Shown piece after piece: positions 7,900 through 28,075 of a DNA stretch of 64,000 bases (position 1 is its first letter; the number at the start of each line of letters is the position of its first letter). The position numbers and the translations under genes are program-made. The notes beneath the pieces are model-generated. The model was given only the letters and a program-made list of their open reading frames with translations, did no database searches and was not told the origin of the DNA. The stretch is taken from NCBI RefSeq assembly GCF_058153355.1, contig NZ_CM177019.1; one strand, given 5' to 3'.

Positions 7900-15888
<7,989 letters not shown>

Positions 15889-16196
15889 GCTTACCTTCCC
15901 TGAACGAGCTAACATAAATGCGCCCTTTCTAGCACAGCGAAAAAATATAAATCCTGATAGCAATATGATTGAAAATTAATAACTTTTCGTTAAGCAGTTT
16001 TGGGTGTGAGTTGCAAGAGGGGAGACTACTGAATAACTCAAGTTTTATAATCGAGGGGAAAATGGTGATGGTGTCCATAGCAAAACGCCCTCAACCATAA
16101 AGATCGAGGGCGCTTAAGATGTCAAAAACCCGCTATCCGTTAAAAAGCAATGCTCAACTAAGGTCAGTGACATTGCGCTAAAAAGCGAATTTTTAG

Positions 16197-16216
16197 AATT
16201 TGGCTCCTCTGACTGG
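16197..16216. repeat. island boundary direct repeat (duplicate of tRNA-Asn 3' end, AATTTGGCTCCTCTGACTGG)
   Basis: Identical 20-mer recurs at 33537-33556, overlapping the 3' end of the minus-strand tRNA-Asn. Confidence 0.75.
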
Positions 16217-16367
16217 GATCGCCGTAGCCATTAACTGGCTGATTGGTAAGCTAAACCTAAAAGTTGGGGTTGTCAAGACCACCAGAATGACCACCTCTTT
16301 ACTTTGAAACTAACGACATATTTTACGCTCATCCCTCAGTCAATCGTAAGCTAATAAACAACACCAA

Positions 16368-16748
16368 CTACGGTGCTGGTATTATAGTCTCTGCTCCAAA
16401 CCAATTTCCAAGTGTTGTCAGTGCCGCAGGTGACAAAGCTTGGGTGAAAAGGATCGCAAGGCGCTTTTGGGGTCTGGAACAAGCGACGTAAAACAAATTT
16501 CGGTTTCGTTCAAATGAGTCTTGCTTATCGACTGGAATCGTTTGGGCTCCAGCGAATTCCAACATTTCTCCGAAGTTATACTGGTTCCACCCACGCCCAA
16601 CAACAACCAGGACATTCTCAAATTCAGCACCTTTCACACCATGTTTAGTTTCGAATGGAGAATATCCATCAAGATAACGGCGAAGTGATCTGACCTCCGA
16701 ATAGGGAATATTTTTCAGCTTTTCAAGTTCTTTTAATCTTCGGGGCAT
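16368..16748 (-). CDS. UvrD/PcrA-like SF1 helicase, C-terminal segment
   Basis: Carries helicase motif V/VI-like sequences (KGAEFENVLVV, YVACSRPQKRL); same reading frame as 16794-18122, separated by a single TAA. Confidence 0.6.
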   Translation of the reverse strand: MPRRLKELEKLKNIPYSEVRSLRRYLDGYSPFETKHGVKGAEFENVLVVVGRGWNQYNFGEMLEFAGAQTIPVDKQDSFERNRNLFYVACSRPQKRLAILFTQALSPAALTTLGNWFGAETIIPAP

Positions 16749-16793
16749 TTCAACATCAGCCGTTCTGTCAAAATGGAGTAACTCCTGCTCAAA

Positions 16794-18122
16794 TTATTCA
16801 ACCTTATCTGGAAGTCTTGGCTTCCGTTGAGCACGGATGAACTCAATTACGTCGCCAATTGTACCAGTTTCGCGGAGAGCAAGAAGTTGCGTCATTACAT
16901 TGTGCCAACTCACCTTATCTGAATGTCTACGCAACAGTGGTGTAATACCGCCAAGCGCATTAAACATCTCTCCATACTTACGAGCGGTAAAGGCATCACA
17001 GGCGGGTTCCAGTTTGTCTACAAAAAAGGCTATATGTTCATGTTCCTTTTTCGTGAAGGATTCATTGTATTTAAACGCTGCCACTATATTTGAATAGCCC
17101 TGCTGATTGGCTAAAAGTCGATGGGTCAACATGAGAATTTTGGTGTGATTGGGAGAAAAGTCCCAACCATCCTGCTCCAACGTTGTTTTAACTCGTTCCA
17201 GAGTAGCCTGGCCTTCACATAATGGTAAATCACCACTCCAGTGCACGCCTTTTTGACGAACTCCTTGCCAATTGTTTGTATGGAAAACGCGTACTAAACC
17301 TGTAGCTTCGGGATCTTTAACACACTGCGGTAGCTCAGGTCTCATACGATTAAGGGCATCAACAATTATCTTGTCCGAACGAAAATTGGCTTCTTTACCT
17401 ATTTCAACCACGTCCTGATGTTCCAGCTTTCCACATCCACCACCATAGATTTTTTGCCAATGGTCGCCGAAAAAACCAAATAAAGGTGCTCTAGCTTGTC
17501 CAAGAAAATGCCGTTTAATTGCCTCAATCCAGTTTTTATCAGTGTCCTGGTACTCATCGACCAGAATGATTGGAAAGCGTTCTGCAATCACTCTACGGAA
17601 TTTTTCGTGCTCCATGAGTGAGACAGTTAAAGAAAGAACATCGTCATGATGAAGAGTTATACGATGGTCGCGAATAGAGCGATGTCCAAGATTATACTCA
17701 ACACTACGATTCCCAAGGCTTCCACCAACTTCTTCGAGCTTTTCTGTCCATGTTGGCATTGTCTCAATCAGTTCTCTCAACGGTTTTTGAAAGCTGCTTA
17801 TTAACGACCAACAGAACGCATGATTGGTATCACAAAAAACGATGGGGCTTCGATCTGTTCGCGCGACGATTTCATCCTTCGCCACGTTAGTAAAGGTGAT
17901 GCAGGCAATTTGCTGGCTACGTTTTTCAAATAAATCCTTATTTCGCTCAATCAAGAATCGAAGTGCCTTAATAAGGGAATACGTTTTACCCGCACCAGCG
18001 CCAGCTTCCAGCCGGAAGCTTCGTCCTTCACTGAGGCAAGCATACATAGATTCCAAAGCTCGCTGGCTAGCAGCTTCGGCGGGCGAATGGATCTCAGACA
18101 TCAGCGCTGGCTCCTTCTTCAA
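16794..18122 (-). CDS. UvrD/PcrA-like SF1 helicase, N-terminal segment
   Basis: Walker A GAGAGKTY, motif II ILVDEYQDT, motif III-like FFGDHWQKIY; start overlaps the upstream OLD-family gene by 29 nt. Confidence 0.7.
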   Translation of the reverse strand: MKKEPALMSEIHSPAEAASQRALESMYACLSEGRSFRLEAGAGAGKTYSLIKALRFLIERNKDLFEKRSQQIACITFTNVAKDEIVARTDRSPIVFCDTNHAFCWSLISSFQKPLRELIETMPTWTEKLEEVGGSLGNRSVEYNLGHRSIRDHRITLHHDDVLSLTVSLMEHEKFRRVIAERFPIILVDEYQDTDKNWIEAIKRHFLGQARAPLFGFFGDHWQKIYGGGCGKLEHQDVVEIGKEANFRSDKIIVDALNRMRPELPQCVKDPEATGLVRVFHTNNWQGVRQKGVHWSGDLPLCEGQATLERVKTTLEQDGWDFSPNHTKILMLTHRLLANQQGYSNIVAAFKYNESFTKKEHEHIAFFVDKLEPACDAFTARKYGEMFNALGGITPLLRRHSDKVSWHNVMTQLLALRETGTIGDVIEFIRAQRKPRLPDKVE

Positions 18123-20166
18123 TACTAGTTGTGGCTTCTACAACTTGCGCCAATACTGGATCTTGTGTCATAAGCTCATTGCTGCCAGCTAACCAGCGGA
18201 TTCCATCGACTATGTATTTGGGGGCGTTCCATTCTGTCTCTGTAATCGCGTATTTCAATGCAAATTCTGATTTTTTCCACTCAGACGCTTTATCACGGGC
18301 TTCTATTTCCAGTTCCTGAGAATTTCTCCCTACCAGCCCGAATAAAGCCGAATTTGCAAGGATAAATGCATCTTCGAATGTGCGTCCGCAGGGGCCATCT
18401 GTCACTTCTGCACATTGATAGGCAATACGATTTCCATTACGAGCTTTATCATCGTCACTCCTGGCAATCAAACCAGCTAATGTGAAAGGGGTATCTTCAG
18501 AGAACCATGCTTTCAAACAAGCATTACTGGAATATGTACCAAGATGAACAGCACATGCCTGACCTCCTGCTCTTTGGACTGCGTCCAGATCTGTTATGAT
18601 CAGACTCTGAAGCTCAAGAAACGCTAATAACTCGAAGAACAAATGAGCGTAAGCACCGCCGACTTCCATCACCGTTGCGTACTGGCTCGACAGCTTCGGT
18701 CTCTCTGGTTCGGCTGATTCTAGTTTTTTGATGATGACGGGAAGCAATAATCGCTCGCTTAACCCCTCGACGAGAATCGCTTTATCTGCGAAAAACAGAT
18801 CACAACGTGTCAACGTCATGTATTGATGAAGGAATTTTTTATCTTCAATTAGAATATGATTCAGCCCTTTACGCAGATCTTTAATTTTGGTTTTTCGGAC
18901 ACCTTCCTGAGTCCCCTGTGCTGGAGCCCCCAGAAAATAGCGAATACTCTCGAAACCAGCCGCATTGGCAATGTGAGACGAGTGTGTAGACACGACAAAT
19001 TGTACAGGCCAGGGTCTCCTGTCCTCAGTGCCATCCACCAGTTGTTGTGCAATTTTGGCAAGTTGACGAATAAAAACCTCCTGCATTTGTGGATGCAGAT
19101 GGGCTTCTGGTTCTTCAATGAATATCAGGTGTACACCCGGCTCAGTAACTTCAGCACAAAATGCTTTATAGAAACCAGCTAATTGCAAGAGAATAAATAT
19201 CAGATTACGTGTACCAAGACCGTTATATGACTCCGGTAATGCGATTCCGCTATAACCTGAATAGCGAACTTTCGTGAAGTTTGATAGCAACTTGCTAACA
19301 TCGAGCAATGTTTCAGTATGTAACTCCTGTCCTCCCAATCCTGGGTATCCAAAAGTTTCTAGAGCCGGAATCAGACTGTTGAGCTGGTTTCCGAAGTTTG
19401 TGTCAATTTGAGTCTGAATGTCCTGAACTGCACCTTTCAATGCATCAGCAATTTGTTTATCAGCAGCTCCCGCAGATGCCGAAGAGGCTGTTGCGAAAAG
19501 ATTTTCAACCGTTTTAGCCAGTACATCGGATTCTCGGGACGTCACATCATCAAGTCCTCGCTGAGCGTTGATAAAGCCCGATTTGACCAGACCGCGCAAT
19601 GCACTAGGTGGTAACTCGCGACGATTATCAGGATCGTTGGGATCTTCAGCCCATATTTTCACACAGAAATTATTAGGGATACGTTCTCGCAATATACGGA
19701 GGAAAGCGAGGCGGTCTTCTCTAGAAAGTGGCATTTCAGTCTGACTTTCGAGAAATTGTGTCAGATGGCCATCTTTCAATTCGTATCGGACTACTACCTG
19801 CGCTTCAGAACACGCGGGATCCAAATCGATAACAAAGGGACTCAATGGACCTAATTGAGGTTGTGCAGGGTCGTACTGGAATTTCAGTCGAAGTTCAATG
19901 GCGGGAATAAGTTCTCGAACGAGATGATCTTCCATGCCTTCCTTAAGTGCTTCCAGAACATCACAAAAACGGTCGTAGCAGGAACTGGAAAAGTCTTCAA
20001 GTTGGAAAGTAGCACTACCATCTGCTAAGAATCTGCGTATTATTTCTGAGAGTGATGTTTTTCCGCTGTTGTTTCGTCCAACAATGACGGTCGTCTGTTC
20101 CTCCAATACAAGCTCTGCATCAGCTAAAAGACGGAAGTTTTTAATTTCGACCTGATGAATGTGCAT
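18094..20166 (-). CDS. OLD-family ATP-dependent endonuclease (ABC ATPase plus TOPRIM), GajA-like
   Basis: 690 aa; Walker A GRNNSGKTS, Walker B/D-loop LIFIEEPEAHLHP, H-loop STHSSH, TOPRIM-like AILVEGLSE and ITDLD. Confidence 0.7.
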   Translation of the reverse strand: MHIHQVEIKNFRLLADAELVLEEQTTVIVGRNNSGKTSLSEIIRRFLADGSATFQLEDFSSSCYDRFCDVLEALKEGMEDHLVRELIPAIELRLKFQYDPAQPQLGPLSPFVIDLDPACSEAQVVVRYELKDGHLTQFLESQTEMPLSREDRLAFLRILRERIPNNFCVKIWAEDPNDPDNRRELPPSALRGLVKSGFINAQRGLDDVTSRESDVLAKTVENLFATASSASAGAADKQIADALKGAVQDIQTQIDTNFGNQLNSLIPALETFGYPGLGGQELHTETLLDVSKLLSNFTKVRYSGYSGIALPESYNGLGTRNLIFILLQLAGFYKAFCAEVTEPGVHLIFIEEPEAHLHPQMQEVFIRQLAKIAQQLVDGTEDRRPWPVQFVVSTHSSHIANAAGFESIRYFLGAPAQGTQEGVRKTKIKDLRKGLNHILIEDKKFLHQYMTLTRCDLFFADKAILVEGLSERLLLPVIIKKLESAEPERPKLSSQYATVMEVGGAYAHLFFELLAFLELQSLIITDLDAVQRAGGQACAVHLGTYSSNACLKAWFSEDTPFTLAGLIARSDDDKARNGNRIAYQCAEVTDGPCGRTFEDAFILANSALFGLVGRNSQELEIEARDKASEWKKSEFALKYAITETEWNAPKYIVDGIRWLAGSNELMTQDPVLAQVVEATTSIEEGASADV

Positions 20167-20303
20167 ATGTCCCTCATGATCTATTTATAGTCTATCGATA
20201 AATCTGATGTTATTGCTCTACCTGTAATTTTCATTCTTACGATTGTTTTGCAATGCAAAATATACCTCAGGCCATATTTATTCCTGAGGTATGTTTTGGT
20301 ATC

Positions 20304-21824
20304 TCACTCGGTCAAAGAGGCCTCACGAACATCATCCGGTTGAGGTTGGCACTCTTTCCATCGTCGAATAAGCGTTGCTACACAGGGATTACCCGCCAGT
20401 TGATTCATTCTGACCCAGTCAACATCCACTAATCCAGCCAGAAGTTCAGGATTTAGTTCCCCTTGTAATGGGTGCCACTGGCGAATACTGGGCTGGCGCT
20501 GAATTTGAGGTTGAAGGGGAGCCAAACTCCCGACGATAACGTAATTTTGTTCTGGATCATGCCAGAGTCGTGTAATGCCAGGTATGTTTTTCAACCAGTT
20601 TCGAGGATCACCTAAAGGTAAATCAAAAACACGAGAGAGTAATTTATTCCATGACGCTATTAATGACGAACTGGCTTTCTTTGCCAATTTTTTCTCACCT
20701 GCCAGGAGTGCATTTTTTCTTTCTGGCCATTTGGAAAAAATATAACTTTTTAAAATATCGTAGGTAACATTAAGTTCATTATTGTAATAATACTCACGCA
20801 AAGCACAATTCCACAACTCGCACAGCAAGTCTAGTTCACGCATGAGTGTATTTTTATTGGTATCTGATAATTCACCTTCCTCATTAAGTTGCGCTATATA
20901 AAAAGACAGTATCTTTGTATCTGGTAAGAGCCAGTGGTTTAGTGAGAACTGCTGACTTTGAGTATCAAGAACAGTCATTAATGCATCTAAATTCTCAGGG
21001 ATCATATTAGGGGTGTCGTATTTCGGATCCTGAAGAAGAATGGATATTTCTTCCATTCTATGAATAATTATTGTCAATCTCTGAGCAAATCTGGTTAATT
21101 TATCTTCACTGCTGCCAAAACCTTGCGCTATTGATTCAGGCCGATAAGTATAAGGCCATTTTTTATTTAAGAGAGTAAGAAGAGCCTCGACAGAGGTATC
21201 AAACAGTTTCAGCCTTTCATCGCAGGCTTTAACTAAATCCGGGCAAGAAGGATTAAAAGGTAAAATTACTGGGCGGTCTTGTTCAGCGGTGAATAAATAT
21301 CCTTCGGTGATAACCAATAGGTCATGAGTCAGTAAGTCTTTCTGTTCTGTCAGGCTTGTACTGATTCTTGTTTCTTTGCAAAGTAAAAGATGCTTCAACG
21401 CAAGTTCTTTGTACGCAACTTCGGTATTACGCGCCAATGCATCAAGACAGGTCTTTTTCTCAAGATCTTGAATGGCATAGTCGTAATAGCAAGAATCTAT
21501 CGCAGGGATGAGTCGGGTAGTCCCATCGGGAGTATCCTGCTCAATCAATAAATTATCAACAACAGAATCACCACTAAGATCAAACGGATTAACGTTGATA
21601 TGCTGGCACGCAATTTTAGTTCTTAGATTCTGAGTTAACGGATAGCGGTCATCAATTATACCACGGATCTGATCTAACAAAACAAGTATGCATATAGAGC
21701 TGTCTTTTTCCAATTTTTCAAATGATGAGGGTTCTGAATCCGGTAATAATTCCAGCTGTACATCAGGATACTTTTTGTTCAACACCTTTTGTATCTGCGC
21801 ACTTCCCCGTGAAACCCGGGTCAT
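20304..21824 (-). CDS. hypothetical protein, no recognisable motif; 5' end lies in IS66-derived sequence
   Basis: Long ORF (track 20304-22004); only in-frame Met codons are inside the IS66 tnpC remnant, so the native N-terminus is probably lost. Confidence 0.4.
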
Positions 21825-22843
21825 CCAACCGGAAGAAGAATGCTGCCCGGCCTGTGGTGGCGGGCTCAGTCCTCTGGGATGTGATGTGTCAGAACAACTG
21901 GAGCTTATCAGCAGCGCCTTTAAGGTTATCGAAACACAACGTCCGAAACTGGCCTGTTGCCGGTGCGACCATATCGTGCAGGCTCCGGTGCCTTCAAAAC
22001 CCATTGCACGCAGTTATGCCGGAGCGGGGCTTCTGGCCCATGTTGTCGCTGGAAAATATGCAGACCATCTGCCGTTATACCGCCAGTCAGAAATATACCG
22101 TCGTCAGGGCGTGGAGCTGAGCCGTGCCACACTGGGGCGCTGGACAGGTGCTGTTGCTGAACTGCTGGAACCGCTGTATGACATCCTGCGCCAGTATGTG
22201 CTGATGCCCGGTAAAGTCCATGCCGATGATATCCCCGTTCCGGTCCAGGAGCCGGGCAGCGGTAAAACAAGGACTGCCCGGCTGTGGGTCTACGTTCGTG
22301 ATGACCGTAACGCCGGTTCGGAAATGCCTCCGGCGGTCTGGTTCGCGTACAGCCCGGACCGGAAAGGTATCCATCCACAGAATCATCTGGCCGGTTACAG
22401 CGGAGTGCTTCAGGCCGATGCTTACGGTGGTTACCGGGCGTTGTACGAATCCGGCAGAATAACGGAAGCCGCATGTATGGCTCATGCCCGGAGAAAAATC
22501 CACGATGTGCATGCAAGAGTGCCCACCGACATCACCACGGAAGCCCTGCAGCGTATCGGTGAACTGTATGCCATCGAGGCAGAGGTCCGGGGCTGTTCAG
22601 CAGAACAGCGTCTGGCGGCAAGAAAAGCCAGAGCCGCGCCACTGATGCAGTCACTGTATGACTGGATACAGCAACAGATGAAAACACTGTCGCGTCACTC
22701 GGACACGGCAAAAGCGTTCGCATACCTGCTGAAACAGTGGGATGCACTGAACGTGTACTGCAGTAATGGCTGGGTGGAAATCGACAACAACATCGCAGAG
22801 AACGCCTTACGGGGAGTGGCCGTAGGCCGGAAAAACTGGCTCT

Positions 22844-24667
22844 GTGTGTCACGAAGGAGTACTTATGGCAACAATGTGAAAATTGCAGCATAAGTTATCC
22901 ATGCTCTGAGGTGGGTGGAGGTGGGCCCTCCGGTCAGGGTTTACAGGAGCACTGACCAAACGACCCGGTGCTGCTTCATTCTAAGGAATGAGGTGGTGAG
23001 CGACTCGGGAAAAGGCAGAGATCTACTGTCACGTGGGGTTCGGGAAGCTGAACGAAAGTAAACTGTCCGATGAAGCATCGAAATCTTAGATGATGTCAAA
23101 ATGGGGCCGTACAGCCGTCCCCTGATAAGCGCAGAAGACACCTGCTTACTGACTGCGCGGCATCCGGTGTGAAGGCAGCAGGATCCCGGGCCAGACCATC
23201 TCAGGGAACGTGAGAACCTGTTTCCGGCACGTATCGGGAAACAGGGGCGGACCCATTCGTAGTAGTGATGAAAGATCTGTAATGGGTCTGGAGCGAAGGG
23301 ATGGGGATCACATTCATTGCAGAAGACACAACCCAAAAGGGGATGACGTAACTGATGCAACGAAAATCATTTGAAATACCAAAAGCACTGGTCTGGGCAT
23401 CATATCTGGATGTGCGTCGCAACAAGGGAGCCCCCGGATGCGACGGGCAGACTTTGAAAATGTTCGACCAGCAACGTGATGGCAATCTATACAAGATCTG
23501 GAACCGGCTATGTTCGGGAACATGGTTTCCGCCACCAGTGCTGGAAAAACGGATCCCGAAGTCGAATGGCAAGGAACGCATTCTGGGGATCCCAACAGTA
23601 TCCGATCGAATTGCTCAGGGAGCGATAAAACTTTTCATGGAAGAAAAGCTTGACCCGATTTTCCATGCTGATTCATATGGTTACCGACCAGGCAAATCAG
23701 CTCATGACGCTCTGAAACAATGTGCCATCCGGTGCTGGCGTTATAGCTGGATACTGGAAGTGGACATCAGTGCGTTTTTCGACCATGTGAGACATGATCT
23801 GGTGCTCAAAGCTCTGGAACACCACGGGATGCCTAAATGGGTCATCCTGTACTGTCGACGCTGGATGGAAGCGCCAATGCAGAGTTGTGAAAATGGAGAA
23901 TTAATAACCCGAACACGAGGCACTCCGCAGGGCGGGGTCATTAGTCCACTACTTGCTAACTTGTTCCTTCACTATGCATTTGATTTGTGGATGGAAAGAG
24001 AATATCGGGGGGTACCGTTTGAGAGGTACGCTGACGATATTGTAGTACATTGTTCACGAATGAGTGATGCAACAAGGCTGAAGAACAGGTTATCGGAGCG
24101 CTTCTCGGAAGTCGGGCTGGTCCTGAATGCAGGGAAAACGAATATCGCCTACATTGACACGTTTAAAAGGAGAAACGTCGCAACGAGTTTCACCTTTCTC
24201 GGATATGACTTCAAAGTGCGTACGCTGAAGAATTTCAAAGGCGAACTGTACCGAAAATGCATGCCGGGTGCGTCAAATGCAGCAATGCGCAAAATAACAG
24301 AAACAATCAAGAAGTGGCGTATACATCGCTCAACAGCTGAGAGTTTGCTGGATTTTGCGAGGCGCTACAATGCGATAGTGAGAGGCTGGATCGAGTACTA
24401 CGGAAAGTTCTGGTCCAGAAATTTCAACTATCGACTGTGGAGTGCAATGCAGTCACGTCTGCTCAAGTGGATGCAGTCTAAATACAGACTTTCGAACCGG
24501 AAGGCTCAGCGAAAGCTGACGCTGGTAAGGAAGGAGTATCCGAAGCTATTTGTTCACTGGTATTTACTACGTGCATCAAATGAGTGATCAAGAGCCGTAT
24601 GACGCGAGAGTGTCACGTACGGTTCCGTGAGCAGCCGGGGAGTGAAATTCTCTCCGGCTGACTCGAC
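22844..24667 (+). mobile_element. group II intron (~1.8 kb) with intron-encoded reverse transcriptase
   Basis: 5' GTGTG start; domain V-like GAGCCGTATGACGCGAGAGTGTCACGTACGGTTC near 3' end; joining the flanks restores the TnpC frame (KNWL-FAGSDSGG). Confidence 0.7.
23355..24587 (+). CDS. group II intron reverse transcriptase/maturase
   Basis: 410 aa with RT motifs including YADD and a C-terminal maturase-like region. Confidence 0.8.
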   Translation: MQRKSFEIPKALVWASYLDVRRNKGAPGCDGQTLKMFDQQRDGNLYKIWNRLCSGTWFPPPVLEKRIPKSNGKERILGIPTVSDRIAQGAIKLFMEEKLDPIFHADSYGYRPGKSAHDALKQCAIRCWRYSWILEVDISAFFDHVRHDLVLKALEHHGMPKWVILYCRRWMEAPMQSCENGELITRTRGTPQGGVISPLLANLFLHYAFDLWMEREYRGVPFERYADDIVVHCSRMSDATRLKNRLSERFSEVGLVLNAGKTNIAYIDTFKRRNVATSFTFLGYDFKVRTLKNFKGELYRKCMPGASNAAMRKITETIKKWRIHRSTAESLLDFARRYNAIVRGWIEYYGKFWSRNFNYRLWSAMQSRLLKWMQSKYRLSNRKAQRKLTLVRKEYPKLFVHWYLLRASNE

Positions 24668-24852
24668 TCGCAGGTTCCGACAGCGGTGGCGAACATGCGG
24701 CGGTGTTGTACTCGCTGATCGGCACATGCCGTCTGAACAATGTGGGGCCAGAAAAATGGCTGCGTTACGTCATTGAGCATATCCAGGACTGGCCGGCAAA
24801 CCGGGTACGCGATCTGTTGCCCTGGAAAGTTGATCTGAGCTCTCAGTAAATA

Positions 24853-26796
24853 TCAATACGGTTCTGGCGAGCCGCTTACGTTTAATCGGGAAATCTCATA
24901 TTTTCGGTTCATCATTAATGGCAGAAGGAAGCGTTGATGCTGTTGACGAGAAATTTCACCAGCACGGAGCAGTTTTTCTAGGTTGCGTAACTGGAAACCC
25001 GCATGCGCCATATCATCATTGTTCTCTGTATTGGCCTGAAAAGCGGAAAAGTAATAATGCCGTGATTCCAGCAAATATAAACAGGTCAGATCCATATTTT
25101 TGCCAGATTCAGGCAGGCTGAAATCCAGATTCACACCATTCGTCGCAGAGGCGGTCTGAGTCAGCACAATGACAATACGCCGGGAGGCAAATGCGGCCTG
25201 ATAAGCATCACTAAAGCCCTTTTTCTTCTGACATTCTGCGGTTAACAGACAAATCAGCGCAGGCTCATTATGTATGCTCACTGGGATAAACACATCAGCA
25301 AAATTTTTTAGTAGAGGATCATCAGATAAAGGTTGTTCCATTTTTAACCATGCGAGGTATTCTCTACTTTGTGTTGCTATTGTAGTGGTAAGCCATTTTC
25401 TTAAATAGGCTATGGAATTCACGAAAGCAAGATGCCCCCGGTGTTGAGGTCTTTTTCCCGCAAGATCCAATACATTAAGCAATTTTAGCAGTATATTTTT
25501 TCGATATTCTGATTCGAAATCTGATGAGGGGTCATCGCCATTCTGGAAAAAATCGGGGGCTAGCGAAGCGAGCAGATCAACACAATGCGGGTTATTCTTT
25601 ATGCTATTGAAATCTTGAATCTCAGCATTCAGTTGTGTGTTTCTGATATTTTCTTTGCTGTTATTGATCTCTTCAATAGCTAAATACTGCAACTGGAAAT
25701 CATCAGCCGTCTGGACATAAGGTATCGGTTCTTTAAACCACTCGACAGGTCGTTTTTCAAAAGTTGTTCCCAGAAAACTTTGTGTAACAGCAGGGTTGCG
25801 TGCTTCTGCAATATAACGAAGAGCTGAATTAATCCACCGGACATCGAAGTGATTACAGGCTCTTTCAATATATGACGTAGCCGACAGTGCAAAGACAAGA
25901 TTACGACTGGCGAGAGAAAGCAGCAGACCTTCTGCCGTCGTGGGCAGAAAGGCACGTTTGATCTGTATCCGTAACGGATCGATATCCGTATCTGAGACAT
26001 TCTGTTTCAGCAACCAATTGGTCAAGCCAAAAATACTGGCATGAGTATTTGGCAAAATATTACTTTTCCTTAATTCCCGTAGTTCCGGCAGGTCAGTACG
26101 CGGTAACAAAAATCGGGACATATTGGGCAGGGTTGAGCCGTAGTATGAAGGCCTGTAATCATTAACGGGGTCGAACAGAAGTCGGGTTAACTTTTTAATG
26201 TATTCATACGCTTCATCTTCACTTGCAGTCAGGTCGGTCAACATTAGGCTAAACTGTCGAATGAATTTTTCCATCAAGCGTAAAAAATCACTGATGTCGA
26301 TAGTCTGATCGCTATCCTGAAGCGGAGAGTCTGGCCTGATAATTTCGTATCCATGTTCCGCTTTCCGCATAATAAGCCGTTCACTGGTCACCAGTTGATC
26401 GGAACGGAATAAATAATGCTCACCAAAGGGTTTATTATCCAGATATTGCTGAAGAGGAATAACCAGCGATCTGGCATGTGTTAAATCAGCATGTTTTTCT
26501 GTTAATGCACTATCCAGATCATTAATAAATTTTTCTAGACGTTCACGGATCATAGGTGCAGGTTCCATTTCAACATACTGCATACGTTGTAGTAATCTGC
26601 GTCCCCCGTCGAGCAACTGACCCAGACACTCAGGTGGTTCCTGAACCCATTGCGCCTGTGCCAGATACTCTTGTAATACCTCAGACTGGTAATCAAATTC
26701 ATCGATGAAAATGATGTAATTACGCAGCTCTTTGCTGGACATTTTTACTTTGCGACGCCCATCGTAAAACGATGAAACCATCTTTTGAGTCGTCAT
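24853..26796 (-). CDS. hypothetical large protein, downstream part of a split P-loop NTPase; Walker-B-like IIFIDEFD near N-terminus
   Basis: 647-aa ORF; stop codon lies inside the IS66 terminal repeat; starts 2 nt after the stop of 26799-27572 in another frame. Confidence 0.45.
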   Translation of the reverse strand: MTTQKMVSSFYDGRRKVKMSSKELRNYIIFIDEFDYQSEVLQEYLAQAQWVQEPPECLGQLLDGGRRLLQRMQYVEMEPAPMIRERLEKFINDLDSALTEKHADLTHARSLVIPLQQYLDNKPFGEHYLFRSDQLVTSERLIMRKAEHGYEIIRPDSPLQDSDQTIDISDFLRLMEKFIRQFSLMLTDLTASEDEAYEYIKKLTRLLFDPVNDYRPSYYGSTLPNMSRFLLPRTDLPELRELRKSNILPNTHASIFGLTNWLLKQNVSDTDIDPLRIQIKRAFLPTTAEGLLLSLASRNLVFALSATSYIERACNHFDVRWINSALRYIAEARNPAVTQSFLGTTFEKRPVEWFKEPIPYVQTADDFQLQYLAIEEINNSKENIRNTQLNAEIQDFNSIKNNPHCVDLLASLAPDFFQNGDDPSSDFESEYRKNILLKLLNVLDLAGKRPQHRGHLAFVNSIAYLRKWLTTTIATQSREYLAWLKMEQPLSDDPLLKNFADVFIPVSIHNEPALICLLTAECQKKKGFSDAYQAAFASRRIVIVLTQTASATNGVNLDFSLPESGKNMDLTCLYLLESRHYYFSAFQANTENNDDMAHAGFQLRNLEKLLRAGEISRQQHQRFLLPLMMNRKYEISRLNVSGSPEPY

Positions 26797-26798
26797 GA

Positions 26799-27572
26799 TC
26801 AGCAGGTGTTGCTTTTCGTCACGCCAGGCAATGGCGGGCAGAATGCGCCTGACCCAGACGTGGCGACGGAAATCTGCAACTCGTTGCCTGGCTTGGCTGC
26901 CTGCGTGAGTTCATGTTCTTCGCCATATTTTTCTTTTTGTTTCTTGGCTTCTTTTTCCAGCAATTTGATATTCTGAATCAGAGTTATCTCCACCGCTGCG
27001 CATGATTTGATTAATGACTCTTTCTCACTGGCGATGGCCGTCTGAAAACGCGTCGGATATCCTTTCAGCGATTTGTTAATATGCAGTATGTTTTTGCAAT
27101 TTCTACGCAATTTGTCGGCGATATCCTGAATGGCAAACAAATTTCTGTCTTCCAGGATATTGATGGAGTCAAATGGATCGGGAAGTGAGTCTGCGGAAAT
27201 ATTATTCTCATGAGGCAAGGGGGTGGCCTCGATGGCAGAAACGATCTGTTCATCTTGTGCATAGAGCACGCTGACGGTGAATGGTTCCCCGTTACTGTCT
27301 TTATGCGCTGCCGTTTTCTCATAAATGTCGTGCAAAATATTCCAGCGATGGGTAACCAGAATGGCTTGAGAGCCTGATTTTTTTATCGTCTCCAGCGCCG
27401 GGAGAGCGTTATCGGCATAGCCAGAGCGGTAGAGTGAGCTGGTTTTTCCGCTACCCGTAGGCCCCTGAAGCTGACAAAATCCTGCGATACGACGGGATGT
27501 TTTGGATTTTTTTGCCTGAGAAAGGGTGTATTCAATAACGGCATTGTAGGAACGTATTAAAGGGGCACTCAC
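26799..27572 (-). CDS. P-loop NTPase N-terminal segment (Walker A GPTGSGKTS)
   Basis: 257-aa ORF with Walker A near residue 40; low-complexity C-terminal tail suggests a frameshift into the next ORF. Confidence 0.45.
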   Translation of the reverse strand: MSAPLIRSYNAVIEYTLSQAKKSKTSRRIAGFCQLQGPTGSGKTSSLYRSGYADNALPALETIKKSGSQAILVTHRWNILHDIYEKTAAHKDSNGEPFTVSVLYAQDEQIVSAIEATPLPHENNISADSLPDPFDSINILEDRNLFAIQDIADKLRRNCKNILHINKSLKGYPTRFQTAIASEKESLIKSCAAVEITLIQNIKLLEKEAKKQKEKYGEEHELTQAAKPGNELQISVATSGSGAFCPPLPGVTKSNTC

Positions 27573-27885
27573 ATTTCACCTCATCCGTGTCAGGTTATCG
27601 AAGAGTAGAATTTCAGCAAATTCATGTTACACCGAACGGGTATCATTTCAATGTTTAATAATAATTTCCCCTTATAAAACAACGCTTATAATACATTCGC
27701 AGGTCAGATGATTTATCGGTGTGTTATTTGTTTGAATTTGGTGTTGTGGTTTTCTTTTTTTAACAATCTTCGATCTTCCTTCCACGACTTCCCCTTGCCG
27801 TTTTCAACCGAAAGCGGTATCTTTCACTTGCACCTGCAAAATCAGGTGCCGGGATTGGAACCCCGAAATGTAACCATACTGGCGA

Positions 27886-27910
27886 CACGTGACGCGTCTG
27901 CGTCTTTTTT
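27886..27910 (+). terminator. hairpin plus T-run (GACGCGTCTGCGTC-TTTTTTT)
   Basis: Short GC stem followed by seven T on the plus strand. Confidence 0.35.
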
Positions 27911-28075
27911 TATGTCGCGCGCTTAGCTACACCAAAATTATGGTGGGCTGGGCGGGGGCACCGTAAGGTGCGCCGGTTCCAGTATGGCCGGTAGTTCCAA
28001 CCTCGTTCAGTCCACCACCCATGAGATTGGAACCTCTGGTGGTGGTTTTCAAACCACATACTGGAGGCTGCCTTT

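Follow-up and report, generated by a model that had tools for sequence, protein, structure and literature searches.

A truncated open reading frame bordering IS66 DNA is very probably the remnant of a DdmE-like Argonaute gene

In the window, the 64,000-nucleotide stretch of DNA analysed in this study, the listing of open reading frames gives, for the feature considered here, a single ORF of 566 aa on the minus strand (20304..22004), which opens with an ATG at position 22004. This start lies within DNA of an IS66-family element, on the other side of which follows a second broken gene. The arrangement raises the question of what protein the ORF once encoded, and whether it belonged to the broken gene beyond the element or to a gene of its own; a first-pass annotation had left both options standing. 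Our answer, which we regard as highly probable, is that the ORF is a non-functional, 5′-truncated remnant of a DdmE-like Argonaute gene. The gene would have been the second one of a ddmDE-like operon that was wrecked stepwise by an IS66 element and a deletion, and the operon would have worked by a mechanism analogous to that of DdmDE.

Boundaries of the remnant and its intact counterparts

A megablast search with window positions 20304-21900 as the query and 5426 complete E. coli genomes as the target yielded matches to the remnant at ~99% identity in 24 genomes. In all 24 of them, the match begins at query base 98, which corresponds to window position 21803, and query bases 1-97 match only copies of IS66 tnpC in the complete E. 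coli genomes. By blastn, window positions 16190-21803 were aligned with positions 17615-12001 of the corresponding locus of strain LF82 (L001). Based on both searches, gene DNA is confined to positions 20304-21803, which are 99.1% identical to LF82. The junction between the remnant and IS66 was placed at 21803/21804 with an uncertainty of ± 4 bp, since the sole gap of the alignment (1 nt) is located 4 nt from its end. From 21804 on, a fragment of IS66 tnpC is read in antisense, indicating that the ATG at 22004 and the ~60 N-terminal codons of the ORF are derived from IS66.

What is left of the gene amounts to 499 codons and a stop codon. The deduced residues are identical to those of an 818-aa protein of strain LF82 (about residues 320-818) at 490 of the 499 positions, and the ddmE-like, long-C-type Argonaute remnant (20304..21803, minus strand) was assigned codons 322-818 plus the stop. 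The true start in intact homologues lies 321 codons further upstream, in a part that is deleted in the window. A promoter scan upstream of the remnant gave nothing above background and no promoter-like site. The breakpoint agrees with the earlier view that about 500 real codons are present, with the 5′ end and the only ATG inside IS66 DNA. Of the range first given for the feature (20304-21824), the start can be kept, while the end is ~21 bp too far, the gene DNA stopping at 21803. Taken by itself, the feature is an ordinary pseudogene fragment.

The intact locus of strain LF82 consists of four co-oriented genes coding for proteins of 1300 aa, 818 aa, 690 aa (GajA) and 577 aa (GajB). The first of them (gene A in the following, WP_001275764.1) ends at L001 11041 and the second (gene B, WP_000982354.1) starts at L001 11045, 3 nt past the stop codon of gene A. 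Both products are annotated as hypothetical proteins, and literature searches by their LF82 accessions and their locus tags gave no mention of them. Genes A and B are adjacent and on the same strand, with gene A upstream, in every one of the eight intact loci that were inspected, and they form two ORFs with a stop and a start of their own, separated by a 3-nt gap or sharing a short overlap. Besides LF82, where the pair is followed by Gabija, these loci belong to Serratia quinivorans, which shows the same four-gene order with Gabija, to Alteromonas (L002 6056-12457) and Rheinheimera (L009 5057-11469), in which the pair is located beside gcvTHP, to Vibrio alginolyticus (beside BREX), to a cyanobacterium (with an AAA_15/SMC_N fragment just downstream), to a spirochaete (Spirochaeta) and to a metagenome contig. 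For 21 gene A/gene B cluster pairs, the longest contig of each partner was identical in size.

The suggestion that the ORF stems from a separate system component is borne out by these loci, as the remnant corresponds to the downstream member of two closely linked genes in LF82. The gene directly upstream of the intact homologues is the 1300-aa gene, which codes for a DdmD-type helicase-nuclease and represents the NTPase of the first-pass annotation. In the loci inspected, the homologues always adjoin this gene, and no independent start outside IS66 was found for the remnant.

The downstream neighbours of the pair differ between the loci, and the ~300-aa genes located 3′ of it in Alteromonas and Spirochaeta have no mutual similarity; the conserved unit is therefore a two-gene module. 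A conserved third component, for which these ~300-aa genes were considered, was rejected, as they are unrelated and the one of Alteromonas looks like part of another system. Gabija is a neighbour within the enterobacterial island and stands outside the conserved pair.

Several side observations were made in the surroundings of the pairs. The position immediately beside gcvT-gcvH-gcvP in two genera (Alteromonas and Rheinheimera) may reflect a shared integration hotspot. The Alteromonas region 3′ of the pair (L002 12454-18228) harbours ORFs of 291 aa and 1632 aa without Pfam match. The smaller one has PADLOC matches to the N-termini of Cap4/LmuA-type PD-(D/E)xK effectors and ends in a Walker-A-like GKPGVGKS, and both ORFs together resemble a large, unannotated NTPase gene for defence that is split or consists of two parts. 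A DdmDE-like pair of canonical size (1189 aa and 731 aa) is part of a dense defence island (L012 1586-12032), with an AAA_15 ATPase gene and a DUF4276 gene upstream and a gene for a 944-aa DUF499 protein downstream. An OLD/AAA_15-type ATPase gene adjoins DdmDE-like pairs also in E. coli, Serratia and a cyanobacterium.

Relationship of the gene pair to DdmE and DdmD

The 818-aa protein encoded by gene B has no match in Pfam even at E ≤ 10 and none in NCBIfam (June 2026), PADLOC v2 or PHROGs, which is in line with the earlier statement that no motif could be placed. Its family comprises 66 clusters in a set of 5.8 billion proteins, all of them about 800-835 aa in length and labelled 'hypothetical', and only 67 representatives in a set of 1.84 billion representatives. 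Structure prediction and a fold search, which had been proposed as a check, led to DdmE. The AF2 model of the intact protein, computed with 44 sequences, reached a pLDDT of 84.4 and a pTM of 0.81. When compared to the PDB with Foldseek, the top six matches were all DdmE, with E-values from 4.9e-17 to 4e-11 and TM values of 0.55-0.62; they include L. casei 9ixm_B (E 4.9e-17) and V. cholerae 9bgk, 8u3k, 9ezy and 8u0j. Classical Argonautes and PIWI proteins come after DdmE, at E~1e-9 and TM~0.3. The predicted structure of gene B is a long-C Argonaute fold composed of N, L1, a short PAZ analogue, L2, MID and PIWI, the latter with an insertion domain.

At the sequence level, homology between gene B and DdmE is transitive. 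Compared directly with PDB sequences, the gene-B profile produced chance matches only. It aligns with a remote family of 19 members (A3) with an hhalign probability of 100% (E 1.4e-62, 702 columns), and the A3 bridging profile matches the DdmE proteins of L. casei (E 6.7e-12) and V. cholerae (E 2e-11) in the PDB. One A3 member, P0095, is encoded directly 3′ of a 1189-aa gene of DdmD size. The PADLOC model for DdmE matches the bridging proteins weakly and the gene-B family not at all, and none of the 19 bridging proteins has a Pfam match at E ≤ 10.

Residues Y373, Q386, E452 and K456 are invariant in all 44 gene-B sequences. In V. cholerae DdmE (VcDdmE), the pocket for the 5′ phosphate of the guide is formed by Y363, Q376, E401 and K405 (bioRxiv 10.1101/2024.05.10.593530). 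The Y-13-Q and E-x3-K spacings are the same in both proteins, and the correspondence of the MID pockets was drawn from this spacing and from the bridging family, in which Y, Q and K are conserved, rather than from a direct alignment. In the PIWI domain, the candidate first catalytic position 486 varies between the sequences (D24/E10/N5/A2), and D578 (42/44) and D735 (44/44) are kept. Judged from the sequences, the variable position 486 is consistent with an inactive PIWI domain, to which the conserved D578 and D735 form a counterpoint. The C-terminal residues K674 and E678 of VcDdmE hold Mg2+ at the guide 5′ phosphate. In an indirect profile alignment, and thus provisionally, they fall on T796 (T27/L8/V3/S3) and R800 (R42) of gene B; therefore, the guide chemistry may differ. 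A predicted helical block at ~590-725 inside the PIWI domain parallels the insertion domain of L. casei DdmE (LcDdmE, residues 510-616).

The 1300-aa protein of gene A is likewise missing from NCBIfam, PADLOC and PHROGs and yielded only sub-threshold matches in Pfam (AAA_11, DEAD). Its profile matches L. casei DdmD (LcDdmD) with an E-value of 1.6e-8 in four collinear blocks, namely Walker B DEFD, SAT, motif VI QQxGRxER and the nuclease block ELYDF..VDAKxW. BLASTP against the 1189-aa partner of P0095 gave an E-value of 1e-28 over 1056 columns. With the AF2 model, which covers residues 1-1200 only (pLDDT 85.1, pTM 0.85), the 21 best Foldseek matches were DdmD without exception (E 2.7e-32 to 8e-10), with XPD/TFIIH helicases ranking after them. 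Invariant residues of the helicase comprise Walker A (G37xTGxGK43), D289/E290, S562/A563/T564 and motif VI (Q914/Q915, G918, R919, E921, R922), and those of the nuclease are E1144, E1170, D1173, D1184 and K1186. The last four match E1082, D1085, D1100 and K1102 of VcDdmD in spacing, residues which are essential for plasmid elimination and whose nuclease set also lists E1059. Gene A thus codes for an SF2 helicase of the XPD/DinG-like kind that is joined to a PD-(D/E)xK nuclease at its C-terminus.

By analogy with DdmDE of V. cholerae and L. casei, to which the pair is tied by homology, fold, gene order and conserved motifs and from which guide type, target and anti-plasmid phenotype are carried over, an Argonaute with a catalytically inactive PIWI domain would hold a short 5′-phosphorylated DNA guide in its MID pocket. 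Pairing of the guide with complementary DNA of an invading plasmid or other mobile element would open a D-loop, and the displaced strand would be passed to the recruited, autoinhibited helicase-nuclease. This enzyme would move in 5′-3′ direction and degrade the displaced strand, so that plasmids would be eliminated. It appears rather likely that intact members of the family work by such a DdmDE-like mechanism. There is a limited chance that the 1300-aa/818-aa pair represents a deep unannotated branch of Argonaute plus helicase-nuclease immunity with properties of its own. In such a branch, the guide 5′ end might be held otherwise, R800 standing where the Mg2+ ligands would be, and perhaps a different class of guide or target would be used; or the pair might be a fixed Enterobacterales cassette cooperating with Gabija, as DdmDE does with DdmABC.

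Downstream of the remnant, the window carries Gabija genes on the minus strand, the LF82 orthologues of which were assigned by PADLOC to GajA (E 2e-290) and GajB (E 4e-267). The gene gajA (18094..20166), coding for an OLD-family ATPase-nuclease with TOPRIM, is apparently intact, differing from LF82 by 9 aa and having no internal stop. In gajB (16368..18101), which codes for a UvrD-like helicase, a change of AAA to TAA at 16794-16796 turned codon 436 of 577 into a nonsense codon, by which Gabija in the window is crippled. That the ddmDE-like pair forms one jointly functioning four-gene system with the Gabija genes 3′ of it is suggested by the same gene order in E. coli LF82 and S. quinivorans, by the AAA_15/SMC_N fragment just 3′ of the cyanobacterial pair and by the AAA_15 gene adjoining the canonical-size DdmDE pair in L012. 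In addition, DdmDE of V. cholerae acts together with another system, DdmABC. However, we consider a joint system unlikely, given that no Gabija accompanies the pair in Alteromonas, Rheinheimera, Vibrio, Spirochaeta and the metagenome contig, that gene B and gajA lie 137 bp apart in LF82, and that Gabija, with its two genes, is known to work autonomously.

The pair might also be assigned to the ApsAB branch instead of the DdmDE branch. In E. coli ST38, ApsAB combines the helicase-nuclease ApsA with the Argonaute-like ApsB and showed activity against plasmids only and none against phages (Nat Commun 2024, PMC11096173). Overall architecture and host species are the same, but we regard this assignment as quite improbable. 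A phmmer search with the first 400 aa of ApsB matched 0 of 126 gene-B-family or bridging proteins, and the Y-x3-K motif is missing, the residue four positions after Y373 not being K (gene-B consensus DRYPLTxxLRxK). Gene A lacks the ~180-aa N-terminal extension of ApsA, and its Walker A is found at 37-43 compared to 218-222. Conserved peptides of the family have no counterpart in Supplementary Data 7 and 8, which give the first 400 aa per sequence, and no partner of 818-822 aa is listed in the homologue tables (PMC11096173). The best structure and sequence links lead to DdmE and DdmD, in a test that is asymmetric, as the PDB holds no ApsB structure.

Lesions in the window and distribution of the clade

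Adjacent to the remnant, a 5′-truncated fragment of an IS66-family tnpC gene, annotated as tnpC in many genomes, was found on the plus strand (21804..22916). A group II intron (22917..24670, plus strand, 3′ end approximate) is located inside tnpC and was recognised with Rfam by group-II-D1D4-2 at 22917-23033 (91.9 bits) and Intron_gpII (domain V/VI) at 24590-24667 (57.1 bits). The RT/maturase ORF of the intron (23355-24587, plus strand, 410 aa), annotated as ltrA in the homologous region, is open. As read from the sequence, the 3′ end of tnpC and the right terminal inverted repeat follow at 24671..24879 (plus strand). Copies of the composite of IS66 and intron with ~97% identity are present in E. 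coli 536 and in some 20 further genomes; there, too, they are fragments with other IS remnants alongside.

Inverted repeats of the IS66 family begin with GTAAGCG. The right IS end reads ...GAGCCGCTTAC at 24879, which we take to be the terminal repeat of this family; it abuts codon 896/897 of the ddmD-like gene, and homology to LF82 resumes at 24879. The terminal repeat at the right end indicates a true insertion at codon ~897 of gene A. Since the left junction is inside tnpC, it marks the endpoint of a deletion rather than an end of the IS, which argues for a later deletion that took the left part of the IS and 2173 bp of the locus (L001 9828-12000). An IS66 element carrying the group II intron in its tnpC would have entered the ddmD-like gene at codon ~897. 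A deletion would then have removed the left part of the element along with ~404 codons from the 3′ end of gene A and 321 codons from the 5′ end of gene B.

The ddmD-like pseudogene beyond the element (24879..27572, minus strand) retains codons 1-896 of 1300, which are covered by the ORFs 26799-27572 and 24853-26796. At codon 225, an insertion of 5 bp (AGCCA on the gene strand, window 26894-26898) causes a frameshift, which is a second inactivating lesion of gene A and independent of the IS66 event. The part deleted includes helicase motif VI and the entire PD-(D/E)xK nuclease domain. In the ddmE-like remnant, most of MID, PIWI and the helical insertion are preserved; the N-lobe (N, L1, PAZ-analogue and L2) and the first MID strand including the invariant D307 and R309 are lost. 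With the frameshift in gene A and the IS66 insertion and deletion across both genes, the DdmDE-like system in the window is dead. The mechanism outlined above cannot operate there, because the sensor lacks the N-lobe and part of MID and the effector is frameshifted and devoid of motif VI and the nuclease domain. Beyond the first-pass annotation, the protein is now recognised as a DdmE-type Argonaute and its 'NTPase' as a DdmD-type helicase-nuclease, with 2173 bp across both genes missing.

In principle, the truncated ORF could be expressed from the IS66-internal ATG and work as a 'short Argonaute' of MID and PIWI only, as its 566 codons are open and the part kept has roughly the MID and PIWI composition of short pAgos. 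This is very improbable: the upstream region offers no promoter-like site, the first MID strand with D307 and R309 is gone, and the effector partner is frameshifted and without nuclease. Moreover, neither IS junction was found in any of the complete E. coli genomes searched, so there is no sign that the allele is maintained. The initial proposal that the remnant represents the 3′ portion of the gene interrupted at ~24853-24879, i.e. the tail of one giant gene split by the IS, is suggested by the same strand and orientation of both pieces with the IS fragment between them, but can practically be dismissed, since LF82 and the seven other intact loci have two ORFs whose products differ in fold (DdmD-like versus DdmE-like), and the remnant aligns to the second only, as residues 322-818 of the 818-aa protein, and is therefore from a separate gene.

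The clade to which the DdmE-like remnant is assigned is present in 25 of the 5426 complete E. coli genomes (about 0.5%), among them LF82, a model strain of the adherent-invasive type. Outside this species, the clade is found in Serratia, Klebsiella, Erwinia, Vibrio, Alteromonas, cyanobacteria and a spirochaete. In the RefSeq records inspected, the label is 'hypothetical protein'. A divergent ddmE-like allele with 73% DNA identity was observed in an E. coli sediment isolate (NZ_LR778147.1, 2628444-2629806), indicating that more than one lineage of the gene-B family circulates in E. coli.

Rfam matches just upstream of the ddmD-like gene comprise the Hfq-binding sRNA isrK (27830-27910, 71 bits) and a C4 antisense RNA (27936-28000), the latter reaching the edge of the searched region. 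Both suggest a P4/CP4-like integrative-element backbone. In LF82, ISEc1 is inserted upstream of the ddmD-like gene at the isrK/C4 region; it is missing from the window. Beyond gajB, window positions 12000-16300 code for a protein with Ig-like domains (invasin/YeeJ-type) and have a best identity of 97.6% to any complete E. coli genome, and LF82 has hxlB and other genes here. As this flank differs, the island is in a chromosomal context different from that of LF82, and its setting is possibly a divergent Escherichia lineage.

Argonaute-guided plasmid-elimination systems such as DdmDE and ApsAB shape the plasmids that a lineage keeps, including resistance plasmids. The window represents the stepwise decay of a defence island, with the DdmDE-like pair destroyed and Gabija crippled. 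The value of the pseudogene lies in pointing to an unannotated Argonaute-based defence clade in E. coli, for which the intact operon of LF82 is an easy experimental target.

Comparison with known systems

Canonical long pAgos (TtAgo, KmAgo, CbAgo and others) and pPIWI-RE proteins are distinguishable from gene B, which has no match to Pfam Piwi, PAZ or pPIWI_RE even at E ≤ 10. It lacks a canonical PAZ and an evident conserved DEDX tetrad, and its effector is a separate helicase-nuclease. The proposed mode of action resembles type I CRISPR-Cas (Cascade and Cas3), an analogy taken from the DdmDE papers, in that a guide-bearing sensor would open an R- or D-loop and recruit a helicase-nuclease to the displaced strand. 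It differs in that neither a CRISPR array nor homology is present and that the guides would be short DNAs.

With ApsAB, the pair shares the combination of a helicase-nuclease with an Argonaute-like partner and the occurrence in E. coli genomic islands. Motif VI reads QAVGRVER in ApsA and QQVGRIER in gene A, and the D..DxK nuclease motif is similar. In contrast to the pair, ApsA has a length of 1569 aa and is extended at its N-terminus, and ApsB, 743 aa long, has a Y-x3-K..QG..K motif (PMC11096173).

The closest match is DdmDE, a system for DNA-guided plasmid elimination that comprises a helicase-nuclease, DdmD, and a 'long-C' Argonaute, DdmE; it is mentioned only in passing in bioRxiv 10.64898/2026.07.06.735840. 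The features in common with DdmDE of V. cholerae (VSP-II) and Lactobacillus casei are a two-gene operon that begins with the helicase-nuclease, the presence in gene A of SF2 motifs and of the E..D...DxK nuclease motif, the Y/Q/E-x3-K pattern of the MID pocket and the helical insertion in PIWI of gene B, a candidate first DEDX position that is not conserved in gene B, and the location in defence islands. The differences are an identity of only 10-16% to the solved DdmE and DdmD proteins, a length exceeding that of DdmD and DdmE by about 110-130 aa in the products of genes A and B, T and R in gene B at the positions of the VcDdmE Mg2+ ligands K674 and E678, and a PADLOC DdmE model that misses the gene-B family. 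LcDdmDE and VcDdmDE are themselves only 14% identical, and for this reason a clade at 10-16% identity that shares their architecture and motifs is best filed as divergent DdmDE-type. Taken together, a third, divergent clade exists beside DdmDE and ApsAB.
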